Translations under genes and position numbers: made by a program
The notes under the pieces: generated by a model
What the model was told of the DNA's origin: nothing
The model's input: only the letters and a program-made list of their open reading frames with translations
Databases searched by the model: none
Shown here: piece after piece, positions 55,061-61,706 of the stretch
Numbering within the stretch: position 1 is the first letter of the stretch
How the letters are laid out: every line of letters begins with the position of its first letter
Assembly: GCA_964622325.1 (NCBI GenBank)
Contig: CAZUOJ010000001.1
Location: forward strand, 65,399 to 129,398
DNA from: an uncultured Armatimonadia bacterium
Lineage (GTDB): Bacteria > Armatimonadota > Zipacnadia > Zipacnadales > UBA11051
Direction of reading: 5' to 3'
Length of the DNA stretch: 64,000 nt

Positions 55061-56566
55061 TCAGTCTCCAGAAGATTTGTATTGAGCAATAATGTTGTGA
55101 ACAACATAATAATCCTGCTGCAAATCTCCTGTGGGACAAAGCGCCCGTACGGCCTTTTCGGCGCGTTGGGCCCAGCGAATAATGCGGCGGAATTTCGGCG
55201 CTGAAAATGCATATGTGTTATTATGAGCCGCCGCCACGATGTCCGGCTGCCAATCCAGGGCCAATTGCGCGCTGGCCACAAAACCCTCGCCAAAGCGGCT
55301 GCCATTATAGGCGCAAAAGCCCCCTGTGCCGTTCCATTTGGATGTGGGCGTAAAATTATCCCCGCCAAATAATACTTTATAGCCGTCTATGGTCGTCATA
55401 AAAACACAGTGCCAATATGTTTGCCCTGGCCAGGGAGCAATATGAAAGGCGTATTCTTCCCAGTGCCAAAGGCCCTGTGCAGGCCATAAATGAGGGGCTG
55501 ATATTGTGCGAGCTAATTTCCATGGCAGCCAGTGGCCTGGCTGTAAGGCTTCCGCAATCAAGGGATGGAGCCAGGCCTGCGCGCCGTATCGTGCCTGCAA
55601 ATAGGCAATGCCATCACAATGATCATAATGATAATGAGTCACTAACATAGCTGTGGGGACAACATTTAATTCATTGAGCAATGCTTCCAGAGCGGGCATT
55701 TCTGGCTCATGGGGATCCACGACAAGCGCCCGGCCGCTTTCAGAAACAAGCAAATAGCCATTGCCGGCATATTGATACAAATGGGGCAGATATTGCAGGG
55801 CGCCGGCTTTTACATCTATCGGCTCGAGATAGCCATCTTTCGTTCGGGGGCTGATTTGTCCCTTCGCCTGATAGAATGAGAGCAGCCGACGCGAAAGCTG
55901 CTGGAGAGTGAATTGGAGAGGATGGGAAAGGACAGGGCCATGCGCGGGGCAAAGCAAATCCATGGCTATGCCGCGCAAACGCTCTATGCCTTCCCAGGCG
56001 GCTAAAGCGCCTGTGCCCGTCCAATGATCCCATTCCAGATGAAACGGCTGCCAGATTGTGCCATTGGCATAAACAGCATCGCCGCAAAACAAAATTTGTT
56101 TGCCCAGATGATCCAGGAGTATAGAGCAAGCATGAGGGCCGTGTCCTGGCGTGTGAAGAAAACGCAAACGGCGTTTCCGCCAGAAGAGATGGCCATTGGC
56201 GATAATATCATACATCACGTCCGCTACGGGCTGCCGGGGCGGCATATAATTCAGCGGACAGCCTATCCCCAGCCACGGCGGCAACACGGCGGAATTCCTT
56301 TGAGGAGAAAGGAAGGCTTCTTCCCCCGCAGGAGCGTGAATGGCAAAGGGCCAGGCAGAGTGCGCCGCCAGGCCTGCGCATTGATCCTCGTGCGCATGCG
56401 TGAGCAAAACATGCTCTAACTGACGAATGCCCAGCGCAGGCAGTTCGGCCAGCCAGCGCCCGCTGCCAAAATCTATCGCCAGCCCATACTCTCCTTCCTG
56501 GATAAGGTACACATTGCAGGTATCGTGAATGACATACAGGGAGGGCAAAAGCTGTTTGATCATAAA
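55061..56566 (-). CDS. Tandem double metallo-beta-lactamase-fold protein
   Basis: GGAGG sits 8 nt upstream of the ATG at 56566. Domain 1 has …LLTHAHEDQ… (an HxHxD-H variant with Q), …TPGHGPH…, …CGD… and …PAHG…. Domain 2 has …LVTHYHYDHCDG…, …YWH…, …GGD… and …AAH…. Confidence 0.7.
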   Translation of the reverse strand, partial: FMIKQLLPSLYVIHDTCNVYLIQEGEYGLAIDFGSGRWLAELPALGIRQLEHVLLTHAHEDQCAGLAAHSAWPFAIHAPAGEEAFLSPQRNSAVLPPWLGIGCPLNYMPPRQPVADVMYDIIANGHLFWRKRRLRFLHTPGHGPHACSILLDHLGKQILFCGDAVYANGTIWQPFHLEWDHWTGTGALAAWEGIERLRGIAMDLLCPAHGPVLSHPLQFTLQQLSRRLLSFYQAKGQISPRTKDGYLEPIDVKAGALQYLPHLYQYAGNGYLLVSESGRALVVDPHEPEMPALEALLNELNVVPTAMLVTHYHYDHCDGIAYLQARYGAQAWLHPLIAEALQPGHWLPWKLARTISAPHLWPAQGLWHWEEYAFHIAPWPGQTYWHCVFMTTIDGYKVLFGGDNFTPTSKWNGTGGFCAYNGSRFGEGFVASAQLALDWQPDIVAAAHNNTYAFSAPKFRRIIRWAQRAEKAVRALCPTGDLQQDYYVVHNIIAQYKSSGD

Positions 56567-56651
56567 ATTGCCTCCAAAAGGCGATGAATGGATTTGCCAC
56601 ACTGGATTTAGGGCTTTCAGCGAGGCCGGGAATGGCATAAGAATAATCCCT

Positions 56652-57884: not shown

Positions 57885-60800
57885 CTATAGACGGACTGAG
57901 GGGGCTTGCAGCGCTTGTCGAATCAAATGGAGTAGTTCCGCGCGGGTAAAGGGCTTTTCCAGATAGCCTGCGGCTTTTAAGGAGTTAGCTTCTTTGTCCG
58001 CCGGCAAAATATAGCCGCTGGCAATAATGACTTTAACGGCAGGATTTATTTGCCGCAATTGCGCCAAAGTTTCCTGTCCGGACAGCCCGGGCATAAACAA
58101 ATCCAGCAATACGAGCGCAATGTTTTCGCCGAATTCCTGATACAATCGCAAGGCTTCTTCCCCGCTGTGAGCAGCTAATACATCGTAGCCATATTGGCGC
58201 AAAATCTCGGCGGTGCTATGCAAAATTTCCGCCTCATCATCGACAATAAGCACACGCTCATGCTGGCCTCGGGGGAGTTCCTCAATCTTTTTCTCGGCTG
58301 GAGGTTCAGCTTCCGCTGTCTGCGCCTGAGGGCAGGCCGGAAAATACATCTCAAAAGTCGTGCCCTGGCCCGGACGACTATCGGCCTTGATATAGCCCTG
58401 ATGTGCTTCAATAATTCCATGGACAACGGATAGCCCCAGGCCCGTTCCTTTGCCCGATTGTTTGGTCGTGAAGAAGGGCTCAAAAATCCTTTGCAGCGTC
58501 TCCTCATCCATTCCCACGCCCGTATCGGAAACGCGCACGCACACATGGGGCCCTGGCTTTAAAGAAGGATATTGCCCTATCTGTTCTTCGGCCAAAATGA
58601 CATTTTCGGTCACAAATTGTAAGCAGCCTCCCTGGGGCATGGCGTCGCGCGCATTTAAGGCGAGATTGATAAAAACTTGTTTGAGATCTTCGGCATCTCC
58701 CCTGATGAGCCATAATCCCGCTTGTAACGCCAGAATGATTTGAATATGACGCGGCAAAGTCTGTTCCAGCAATTCCTGAATTTCCCGCAGCACTTCATTG
58801 ATGGACAATAAGGTATGCATATCGGCGGGTTTAGGCCGGCTGAAGGTCAGCAATTGGGAAGTCAGTCGTTTGCCATAATTCGCGCGATCTAAAATGACAG
58901 CAATTTGTCTTTGTATGGCTTCCTGGGCTTCCGTTTCTGCCTGGATTAATTCAGCATACATACTGATGGCCTGTAAGATGTTGTTGAATTCATGCGCCAC
59001 GCCTCCCGCCAGCCTGCCCAAAGCTTCCAGGCGCTGGGCATGTTCCAGTTGCGCCCGCAATCGCCGCGCTTCCGTCACATCCACGATATGTCCCATAATG
59101 TGAGGCCTCGCCTCTGTGCTGGGCATGATTTGCGCCCAGATTTGCATCCAGCGCAGTTCGCCCTTACGCGTCAGCATGGGCATTTCCAGAGGCTCTGTCA
59201 TCGGCGCCTGGCTAGATTGCTGTTCTCGAAACCAATTGAGCGCTATTTCCCGTTGTTCGGCCGGGAACAAACGCAGAACGCGGCAGCCCAAGAGCTCATT
59301 TGCTGAATAGCCCAGCATCTGATGGAGACGCTGATTGGCAAAAATAATTCTATCGCCGCGAACGATGAATGTTCCGACGAGACGGCTTTCCGCCAGCATC
59401 TCATATTGACGATGCAGGCGTTCCAGTTCCTGTTGCGCTTTCCGGCGCATCGTAACATCGCGCGCCACCGCCAGGACGGCAGGCCTTCCCTCAAATTCAA
59501 AACGATGCGCACTGATTTCCATCGGGACAATGCGTCCGTCCCGCGCCGCCATTTCCAGCTCAAAGAGCACATGTCGCTCCACTGGCAATTCAATTAAAAG
59601 TCGTTGCAGATGTTTTTGCAGTTGCTGGCCATTAGCTTCAGCCACACATAATTCCTCTAAAGTCTTCTCGAGCAGCTCTTGCCGGCTATATCCCAATTTC
59701 ACACACGCCATATCGTTCACTTCGAGAAATCGTCCGACAGATCCGTCGGAGAAAAGCTCAAACACGAAAATAGCATCCTGCCCGCTATTGAACAGCAGGC
59801 GATAACGCTTTTCGCTCGCATGCACGGCTTGTTCAGCGGCCCGATGTTCCGTGATGTCCAGGCCAATGGCGACGATTTCGCGGATCTGGCCCTCATTATC
59901 TAAAATCCGCGCATTGCGCCAGCTAATCAGCCGCTCGCGCCCGTCCTTCGTTAGCCATGGATTTTCGTAAACATTGCTTTCCGTCCGCTGGAGGAGGTCC
60001 TCAAATACGCCCTGGATTTGCGCCACAAAGCGAGGCGGAATAAGCACTTCCCATAGCAAGCGCCCCAGAACCTCTTCCGCCTTGAAGCCAGTGACTTCTT
60101 CACAGCAGCGATTGAAAAAGGTAATGTGTCCCTGGGGATCCAGGCAGACAATCAACGCGCCGGCAGTTTGCAAAATCCGCAGGGAACGCTCGTGCTCCTC
60201 CGCTAATTGCATCTGATAGCGCGCACGTTCCTGTTCCACTTCCAACGCAAAAAGGGCAAAGGCGATGTCTCCCGCGACTTCTTCAAAGAGCGATTTCTCC
60301 TCCACGCTGTCCGCCATTTTCGCCGGCAAAGAAACAATAAGCATTCCATACGATTTGCCGCCGTACTCCAGCCGCACCGCCATACACGATTGTCCCATCT
60401 GGCATAAAGCTTTTGTGACAGAAGCCAGCTTATTCGCCGCTTCTGACACAGGCACAAGCACGGCCCGCATTTGCGGGGGCTGCCTGACAAGATCCCAAAG
60501 CTCCGCCAGAGTTTCGGGATGAGCAAAAGAGGACAAAATCTGCGGTTCGCCCGCCTGATAGGAGGCAAGCTCGGCAAAAGTTGGAGAGTCCGCTGTCAAT
60601 ACAAGTGCAGCAGCTGAATAGCCGCGTGTTTCTACTAATAATTCGCAAGAACGCGCCAGAAGCCGCTCCCGATCGCGCTCATGGGTAATGAGCTGATTGA
60701 CATTGCGAATCGCCCGCAGCACAGAATTGAGATGCTCCAGGCGCTCCGTGGTCTGTTTCAGTTTTGTGATATCCTTTAATACAGCAAAACTGCCAGCAAA

Positions 60801-61706
60801 ATTCCCATTTTCATCATACAAAGGCACGGCCGACACCCATACATTAATTGGACAGCCATTTTTATGCCGAAAAATGATCTCGTAGTTATCTTTGGCGCCT
60901 CCCGCCCGCCGCTGTAACTGGCAGGCTAACAGAGCCAGATTTTCCTCGTCGTACATTAAAAAGGAGGCAGGCCGTCCAATAAGCTCTTCGGGCGCATAGC
61001 CAATAAGTTCGCGGGAAGCGGGATTGGCGTATATAATAATACCGCTGGGATCCACAATAGTTAAAGTGTCTCCCATTGTCTCCACAAGCATCCGAAAACG
61101 TGTCTCCAGCCGCCGTTGCTCCGTCACATCAAAAAGCAATTGCAGCACGCTGTCAAGTTGGCCTGTGGGACTGGAAAGAGGATGGCTATCCAGGAGGCAG
61201 AGCGCCGTCTGGCCATCAGCGCGCCGCACGAGGACTTCCATTATTTCCAGCGCTTGTCCTGCTTTGGCGCGGCGCACATGACAATGTTCCGTGTGACACG
61301 CAGAATGCGGCAAAATCTCAAAACACATCCGGCCGATAATTTCCTGAGCCGGCTTGCCGACTAATTCGCAAAAAGCCTGATTGACATTGCGAACACTAAA
61401 ATCTAGGCCAATTTCCCATATCCCCTGGGGCGCTCTATCGAAAAGTTCGCGATATCGCCGCTGGGATTCGCGCAGAGCTTCTTGCGCCAGTCGGCGTTCC
61501 CGCATCACATAGGCAATAATTGCCCCCGCCAACAGATAGAGGAACAGGATATAAGAATGCAGATACAAATGGGACAGCAAATGTTGCCAAAATAATACGC
61601 CCCATGCCTGCGGCTGGAATAAAAAGACATCAATTATGCCATTGAGCGTCCATGTGCCCAGCCCCAGCAATGCGCATAACAAAAAAACTTTGATCTCGGC
61701 CTTCAT
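57885..61706 (-). CDS. Multi-sensor hybrid histidine kinase (TM, multiple PAS, GAF, HisKA, HATPase_c, C-terminal receiver)
   Basis: It is 1273 aa. It has N-terminal TM helices, several PAS-like segments, the HisKA H-box (…[14 protein letters not shown]…), the HATPase G-boxes (…[22 protein letters not shown]…GTGLGLS…) and a receiver (…RVLIVDDE…[11 protein letters not shown]…). Confidence 0.85.

Follow-up and report, generated by a model that had tools for sequence, protein, structure and literature searches.

Introduction

Every known kinase that is stimulated by a solute-binding protein (SBP) docks this protein through an extracytoplasmic domain of the 4HB or Cache type (PMC8050422). The secreted zinc-binding proteins ZnuE and ZnuF of C. 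diphtheriae are described as having a C-terminal transmembrane (TM) anchor and a novel HxD/HxH zinc-binding motif; they are treated in that description as distinct from the transporter SBP ZnuA, and ZnuE is encoded within the znu transporter operon (PMC12445094). Long-form RNase Z (ELAC2/Trz1) is a known protein with two metallo-β-lactamase (MBL) domains in tandem (10.1101/2024.05.14.593974), and a literature search for tandem-MBL proteins returned papers on ELAC2 and CPSF3 only. Here, we describe a locus of an uncultured Armatimonadia bacterium (GenBank contig CAZUOJ010000001.1) in which a hybrid sensor histidine kinase, an SBP of the ZnuA/PsaA fold (cluster A-I) and a tandem-MBL protein are encoded one after the other on the minus strand of a 64 kb stretch of DNA, which is referred to below as the window.

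A first-pass annotation, made from the letters of the window alone, had read these genes as a single metal-delivery or metal-sensing module that is coupled to signaling and is not a transport system. The reading that we prefer, tentatively and with slightly less than even confidence, is that the locus holds two things and not a three-gene module: a kinase that is a neighbor, and a pair in which a metal-uptake receptor is co-transcribed with a metal-dependent cytoplasmic tandem-MBL enzyme. The parts are of known kinds, and their arrangement is unusual and lineage-restricted.

Gene models and the SBP–MBL pair

Open reading frames and Pfam matches agree with the three minus-strand genes and the domain types named in the first-pass annotation. 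The SBP gene (positions 56652–57782 of the window; all three genes and their parts are on the minus strand) is likely to start at the ATG at 57782, which gives a protein of 376 residues with an N-terminal signal peptide, and not at the TTG at 57854. The same start was chosen in independent gene calls for the same genome (L175–L177; related loci are cited by such numbers) and for a related genome (L087). The spacer between the SBP gene and the kinase gene (57885–61706, 1273 residues, assigned with Pfam and NCBIfam) is thus 102 nt long instead of the 30 nt first noted. The tandem-MBL gene begins with the ATG at 56563, 88 nt from the SBP stop codon, and a GGAGG ribosome-binding site, recognized by reading the sequence (56571–56575), lies 7 nt 5′ of this ATG. 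The two MBL domains of the annotation stand, with a protein length of 500 and not 501 residues. The N-terminal domain (approximately residues 1–240; 55844–56563) was delimited by Pfam Lactamase_B, invariant columns and the AlphaFold2 model, and the C-terminal domain (approximately residues 250–500; 55061–55816 including the stop codon) by Pfam Lactamase_B and the alignment. Between the window and L087, amino-acid identity is 87.5% for the kinase, 76.9% for the SBP and 89.4% for the MBL protein, with dN/dS ratios of 0.12, 0.21 and 0.14, respectively. Purifying selection acts on all three genes.

The SBP and tandem-MBL genes recur as a pair (window/L087, L001/L002, L007/L092 and L091) with differing flanking genes. 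In the window, L087 and L175, the kinase gene lies upstream and a convergent Gfo/Idh/MocA gene downstream; in L001 and L002, a divergent GH172 gene is found upstream and NamZ downstream. In L007, L091 and L092, the SBP and MBL genes are separated by a radical SAM/SPASM gene, and in L097 such a gene directly follows the SBP gene, after which the contig ends. In the pair loci with flanks other than those of the window, the SBP is 54–57% identical to the window protein and the MBL protein about 70% identical. The paired genes are co-directional, with gaps of 24–103 nt. Of the three-gene unit that the first-pass annotation proposed to look for in relatives, the SBP–MBL pair recurs in different surroundings, and the kinase is linked to it in same-genus genomes only.

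A consensus scan of the kinase–SBP spacer located a promoter-like element on the minus strand (57789–57817), consisting of a −35 hexamer ATGACA (57817–57812), a TG dinucleotide (57797–57796) and a −10 hexamer TATCCT (57794–57789), with 17 nt between the two hexamers; the element is identical in L087. A distance of 6 nt separates the end of its −10 hexamer from the SBP ATG, a spacing that suggests that the SBP–MBL transcript is leaderless or nearly so. The extended −10-like motif TGnTATnCT is present in eight of 15 SBP upstream regions, all of which belong to MBL-linked or L007-type loci, compared with a background of 0.037 per kb, and it precedes the SBP gene in every pair locus of these types, including those that have no kinase. 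No promoter-like site was found on the minus strand of the SBP–MBL spacer, and a terminator scan returned 11 sites where 9.7 were expected, none of them convincing between the genes. We infer that the SBP and MBL genes are transcribed separately from the kinase gene, as a two-gene unit that would be under its own promoter. Searches of the window and six related loci against Rfam at gathering thresholds, and of the locus itself at E values of up to 1, gave no riboswitch or other RNA family. No palindromic operator of the Zur, Fur or MntR type is shared by the regions upstream of the SBP genes, which have only the extended −10-like motif in common.

The radical SAM/SPASM genes (L007:3976–5082, L091:2921–3961, L092:3948–5054 and L097:1839–2690) encode proteins of 346–368 residues and occur in one sub-branch. 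Their best NCBIfam matches, a tungsten-cofactor oxidoreductase maturase and a 'putative metalloenzyme maturase', are both far below cut-off. In the closest MBL clade, four loci (L001:7590–8717, L002:7063–8190, L093:1864–3009 and L094:1679–2812) have NamZ (exo-β-N-acetylmuramidase family, PF07075/PF20732) immediately after the tandem-MBL gene and on its strand. Homologues of the radical SAM, NamZ and GH172 neighbors were not found in the window.

Ancestry of the SBP gene

To obtain the gene order around related SBP genes, the SBP alignment was used to scan metagenome contigs, and the flanks were then searched with hidden Markov models (HMMs). SBPs with 30–42% identity to the window protein are directly followed by an ATP-binding cassette (ABC) ATPase gene and then by an ABC-3 permease gene. 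All three genes are visible in 13 loci (L004, L005, L100, L101, L105, L106, L108–L115); in L006, L107 and L117 the contig is cut at or inside the ATPase gene, and the same order is seen in L118, where the start of the contig truncates the SBP gene. In the nearer Armatimonadia clade, the number of loci with ABC genes beside the SBP gene is zero. Since the distant relatives almost always head SBP–ATPase–permease operons, the orphan state of the nearer SBPs is, as judged from these gene orders, derived. In a neighbor-joining tree of the near clade, all of the SBPs that are followed by an MBL gene (window, L087, L001, L007, L091 and L097) share one branch, from which it follows that the linkage arose once, and a second branch contains orphans with unrelated neighbors (L003, L089, L090 and L098).

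In the window, phmmer searches with queries from a related operon, which recovered the positive controls, found no ABC-3 permease or ABC ATPase. The flanks of the SBP gene were also viewed for 10 kb on each side in the same genome, up to 3.8 kb beyond the window end, and neither gene was found there. The absence of ABC genes near the SBP that the first-pass annotation had pointed out is confirmed in both searches. According to the mechanism that we favor, the SBP gene would have lost its linkage to the permease and ATPase genes in this Armatimonadia lineage, its relatives being receptors of ABC-3 metal importers. The protein itself would still capture a divalent metal outside the cell and pass it to a permease and ATPase that are presumed to be encoded elsewhere in the genome.

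For one SBP that branches among the ABC-linked members (L103:6905–8011), the flanking DNA, about 6 kb on each side, is free of ABC genes. Around another (L099:626–1810), no ABC genes were seen on a contig of only 2.7 kb. Given L103, the SBP gene may have been unlinked from the transporter more than once.

Metal site, anchor and tail of the SBP

The assignment of the middle gene to the ZnuA/TroA family is borne out by a match to PF01297 (ZnuA) of 80.8 bits, against a cut-off of 29, over profile positions 1–251 of 263. The SBP profile matches the solved structures of ZnuA, PsaA, MntC and TroA with E values of 1e-13 to 1e-9. The metal site was assessed against solved PsaA and across 136 aligned sequences. 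His88 and His153, corresponding to the first two canonical histidine ligands, are conserved. Where PsaA has the third canonical ligand, Glu205, the window protein has Pro220, and a proline is found there across the whole clade. Asp298 aligns with Asp280 of PsaA and is conserved in the near clade only, and a cysteine located three residues past Pro220 is conserved in close relatives and is serine in the window protein. Metal binding by the SBP is plausible on this pattern of residues.

The C-terminal region contains a TM helix (residues 338–356, LVLSALAGMLIGLLLGRLL; 56715–56771) with a hydropathy of 2.21, followed by basic stop-transfer residues and a tail motif GAGIF (residues 365–369; 56676–56690) that precedes Glu or Asp and is invariant in the alignment of close relatives. 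These relatives (20 clusters, 41–77% identity) have in common an N-terminal signal sequence, the ZnuA fold, a C-terminal TM helix with basic residues and the invariant GAGIF(E/D), which is placed on the cytoplasmic side because it is near the C-terminus, past the TM helix and the basic residues. The protein is therefore predicted to be an exported cluster A-I SBP that is tethered to the membrane by its C-terminal helix, beyond which a short conserved tail extends into the cytoplasm. An exhaustive profile search yielded 68 clusters at 50% identity (E < 1e-30). Of the clade representatives examined, the majority possess a hydrophobic segment at the C-terminus, and the GAGIF tail is confined to the nearest dozen or so. 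A general C-terminal sorting signal was considered for GAGIF and ruled out, as the motif is present in no other open reading frame of the window or of the first 86 loci. Unlike signals of the LPXTG or PEP-CTERM type, it sits after basic stop-transfer residues.

An invariant cytoplasmic tail behind a stop-transfer sequence, together with the lack of ABC genes in any near-clade locus and the maturase-like radical SAM/SPASM gene after the SBP gene in L007, L091, L092 and L097, could be taken to mean that the orphan SBP has been re-used without a transporter, its TM helix and GAGIF tail acting on the MBL or the radical SAM/SPASM protein and relaying the metal status outside the cell inward. This explanation is improbable in our judgment, since the same tail is carried by ordinary ABC-operon SBPs with no MBL gene nearby (L004 and L100, with a GRGIF variant in L101), and the orphans without an MBL gene keep it too. 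ABC-linked and orphan SBPs have the C-terminal TM helix in common as well. Because ABC-linked SBPs carry GAGIF, the tail predates the SBP–MBL pairing, and the simplest reading would be that it serves the SBP in its role with a transporter. We give marginally less credence still to the explicit form of this idea, in which an SBP cut loose from its ABC importer would have become a single-pass relay whose tail docks on or controls the tandem MBL, or is modified by the radical SAM/SPASM protein. The view that the locus is not a transport system is at odds with the distant members of the clade, which lead ABC operons, and with a cytoplasmic tail that is unchanged in the orphans. A C-terminally anchored and tailed SBP clade raises the possibility that an SBP contacts its transporter directly from the cytoplasmic side; we know of no description of such a contact for cluster A-I systems.

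The tandem-MBL protein

Pfam recognizes two Lactamase_B stretches in the third protein, in which the MBL fold is present twice. The N-terminal half contains His56-x-His58-x-Asp60-Gln61, with an invariant glutamine, together with His141, Asp162 and His208; the C-terminal half contains His310-x-His312-x-Asp314-His315, Gln381 in place of the motif-3 histidine, Asp402 and His447. These residues are invariant in 27 aligned sequences from several phyla, for which the mean column identity is 56%. Each half thus has one altered metal-site position, an invariant His-to-Gln change, and most of the other ligands are invariant. Aligned with each other, the two halves show 27% identity (E value of 6e-6), which points to an origin by internal duplication. 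The AlphaFold2 model has a pLDDT of 89 and a pTM of 0.87.

None of the family-specific NCBIfam models comes near its cut-off with this protein. The closest, glyoxalase II (GloB, TIGR03413), scores 62 bits against a cut-off of 200.8 and covers the C-terminal half only. Class B β-lactamases were rejected on scores of 50.3 bits against 100 (bla_class_B_core) and 34 against 240 (bla_subclass_B3) and on the lack of a signal peptide, and long-form RNase Z (TIGR02651) on 20.4 bits against 292.95. As the first-pass annotation had supposed for this context, no characterized or solved relative of the family was found.

The architecture is more widespread than was first thought, when it was called rare: the family, which is strongly conserved, comprises more than 360 clusters at 90% identity, and its members are encoded in at least 157 species-representative genomes, 80 of which are listed and provide the neighbor counts (80 species, 82 loci). 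Nearly all of the 80 listed genomes are labeled as metagenome-assembled genomes (MAGs) or uncultured isolates, and they are distributed over about ten phyla, mostly uncultured ones (Armatimonadota, Lentisphaerae/Victivallales, Kiritimatiellia, Verrucomicrobiota, Phycisphaerae/Planctomycetota, Chloroflexota, Spirochaetia, Sumerlaeota, Latescibacterota, Gemmatimonadota and Handelsmanbacteria). The proteins of the listed loci are 41–71% identical to the window protein. No neighbor is constant, the most frequent neighbor families reaching just 13 of the 82 loci. Gfo/Idh/MocA neighbors are 24–38% identical to that of the window and lie 129–5258 nt away; they are not mutually orthologous at such identities, and a lactonase-type pathway for the tandem MBL was dropped for this reason.

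No signal peptide or TM segment was found in the window protein. Tat-like N-termini are seen in three of 120 homologues (P0088, P0104 and P0112, beginning with MNRRELLK, MHRRDFFK and MDRRRFLT, respectively), and the tandem MBL may thus be periplasmic in a few lineages and cytoplasmic in the window. A direct hand-over of metal from the SBP to the MBL protein is unlikely, because the binding domain of the former and the latter are predicted to be on opposite sides of the membrane. The metal delivery proposed in the first-pass annotation conflicts with this topology, in which the SBP domain is exported by virtue of a signal peptide and a C-terminal TM helix and the MBL protein has neither. In the preferred reading, co-transcription would tie the expression of a metal-dependent enzyme to that of a receptor for metal uptake, and the two would be coupled through regulation and not by a physical hand-over.

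The main rival to this reading is that the SBP and MBL genes are neighbors by inheritance only, in an order without bearing on function, the three genes of the locus being unrelated and standing head-to-tail by chance. In favor of this view, the pairing arose only once, as judged from the SBP tree, and is limited to a narrow lineage; 79 of the 80 listed tandem-MBL loci have no SBP gene nearby, L007 being the one that does; and one MAG holds its SBP and MBL genes on separate contigs (L003 and L008). The sister SBPs in L003, L089 and L090 are orphans without an MBL gene, so that retention of the pair could be plain inheritance. The tandem MBL is without a constant neighbor in any phylum, and even its Gfo/Idh/MocA neighbors are of low identity and at variable distance. 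We regard plain inheritance as less likely than the preferred reading, although the most serious of the alternatives, since at SBP identities of 54–57% the pair has outlasted changes in the flanking genes on either side and an insertion that parted its members. The paired genes have kept their common direction and short gaps and have a promoter-like element upstream of the SBP gene only. The preferred reading is further weakened by the missing permease and ATPase partner in the window and in the 10 kb flanks of the SBP gene, and by the finding of neither a metal riboswitch nor a palindromic operator that would indicate metal regulation. The case for metal binding by the SBP is weakened, moreover, by the replacement of the third canonical ligand by Pro220 and of the nearby cysteine of the clade by a serine.

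Assignment of a substrate to the tandem MBL would annotate hundreds of genes at once, and the complementary His-to-Gln changes in its two halves offer a natural case of sub-functionalization after internal duplication. The value of following up this locus lies in this uncharacterized family and in the tailed, C-terminally anchored SBP clade; the analysis gives no support for a new metal-signaling module.

The hybrid kinase

The kinase consists of two TM helices, two PAS domains, a GAF-like region, three further PAS domains, HisKA, HATPase_c and REC. The five PAS stretches, HisKA, HATPase_c and Response_reg exceed their Pfam cut-offs. For the GAF domain of the annotated description (1273 residues with TM, PAS, GAF, HisKA, HATPase and REC), the match to GAF_2 is sub-threshold at 19.5 bits against a cut-off of 28.6. 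The TM helices, located by hydropathy, span residues 7–25 and 49–67. No extracytoplasmic ligand-binding domain is present in the kinase, which has only a 23-residue loop between these helices. In the first PAS domain, residues 128–142 (61281–61325) form a stretch rich in cysteine and histidine (Cys128, His133, Cys136, His137, Cys141 and His142), which is kept in the L087 orthologue except for one His-to-Tyr change and could be a metal, heme or redox site.

The kinase and SBP genes are adjacent only in the window, L087 and L175–L177, all from the same genus, and are unlinked in L001, L007, L091, L092, L003, L089 and L090. Elsewhere among the pair loci, the place upstream of the SBP gene is taken not by a kinase gene but by a GH172 gene in divergent orientation or by a pilin-like gene. 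The window and L087 are syntenic across the 20 kb compared, and the shared position of the kinase gene is for this reason uninformative as to function.

A role of the SBP as co-sensor of the hybrid kinase or as metallochaperone of the MBL protein, with all three genes forming one metal-sensing or metal-delivery module, would be in keeping with co-directional genes separated by short gaps, with the conservation in L087 of the Cys/His-rich stretch, and with the existence of SBP-stimulated kinases as a known kind of system (PMC8050422). It has the least support of the explanations weighed here and is very improbable: the kinase has no extracytoplasmic domain on which the SBP could dock, its adjacency to the SBP gene does not extend beyond same-genus genomes, a promoter-like element stands between the two genes, and the SBP domain and the MBL protein are on opposite sides of the membrane. 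The coupling of the SBP–MBL pair to kinase signaling put forward in the first-pass annotation is left without support by the same kinase topology and same-genus restriction, and by the extended −10-like element in the spacer. The kinase gene is probably a separate transcription unit that lies outside the SBP–MBL pair. Its product would sense cytoplasmic or membrane cues through the PAS and GAF-like domains, with a phosphorelay as output, as a neighbor of the pair and not a partner.

Surrounding genes

Downstream of the MBL gene, positions 45536–54925 contain a glycan-processing block that is syntenic in L087 and L175. Its members are a Gfo/Idh/MocA protein with a GH109-like C-terminal domain, an 825-residue β-helix protein, a xylose-isomerase-like TIM barrel, a SASA-type esterase, a GHMP kinase and an Epimerase_2/Glyphos_transf protein. 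On the other side, positions 62879–63967 (minus strand) encode the C-terminal part of a 1074-residue protein that runs off the window end; it has no Pfam or NCBIfam match, and its position is kept in L087 and L175.

Comparison with known systems

The SBP shares the fold family, the export signal, the first two histidine ligands and the aspartate that aligns with Asp280 of PsaA with the cluster A-I SBPs of ABC-3 importers (ZnuA, PsaA, MntC and TroA), and distant members of its clade are encoded in SBP–ATPase–ABC-3 permease operons, as is usual for cluster A-I. It differs from them in the replacement of the third ligand (His or Glu) by proline throughout the clade, in the lack of adjacent ABC genes at this locus and in its mode of attachment, which is a C-terminal TM helix with a cytoplasmic GAGIF(E/D) tail and not an N-terminal lipid. 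ZnuE and ZnuF are set apart from the window protein by description only, no GAGIF-type tail being mentioned for them in the passages cited above.

The systems of SBP-stimulated kinases (LuxP–LuxQ, TorT–TorS, XylFII–LytS and HptA–HptS) likewise have an SBP gene that adjoins a kinase gene and not transporter genes. The window kinase departs from them in having only a 23-residue loop between its TM helices, and in an adjacency that is confined to same-genus genomes.

Compared with subclass B3 β-lactamases, glyoxalase II/YcbL, PqsE and LACTB2, structural matches of the tandem-MBL protein span one domain, with a query-normalized TM-score of about 0.35. It is further distinguished from single-domain MBL hydrolases by family HMM scores that are far sub-threshold, by the lack of a signal peptide and by the invariant His-to-Gln change in each half. 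Long-form RNase Z also has two MBL domains that arose by duplication within one polypeptide; ELAC2 is a product of duplication, and its N-terminal half is catalytically dead. The window protein scores far below the cut-off of the RNase Z HMM and, in contrast to long-form RNase Z, keeps most of the metal ligands in both of its halves.

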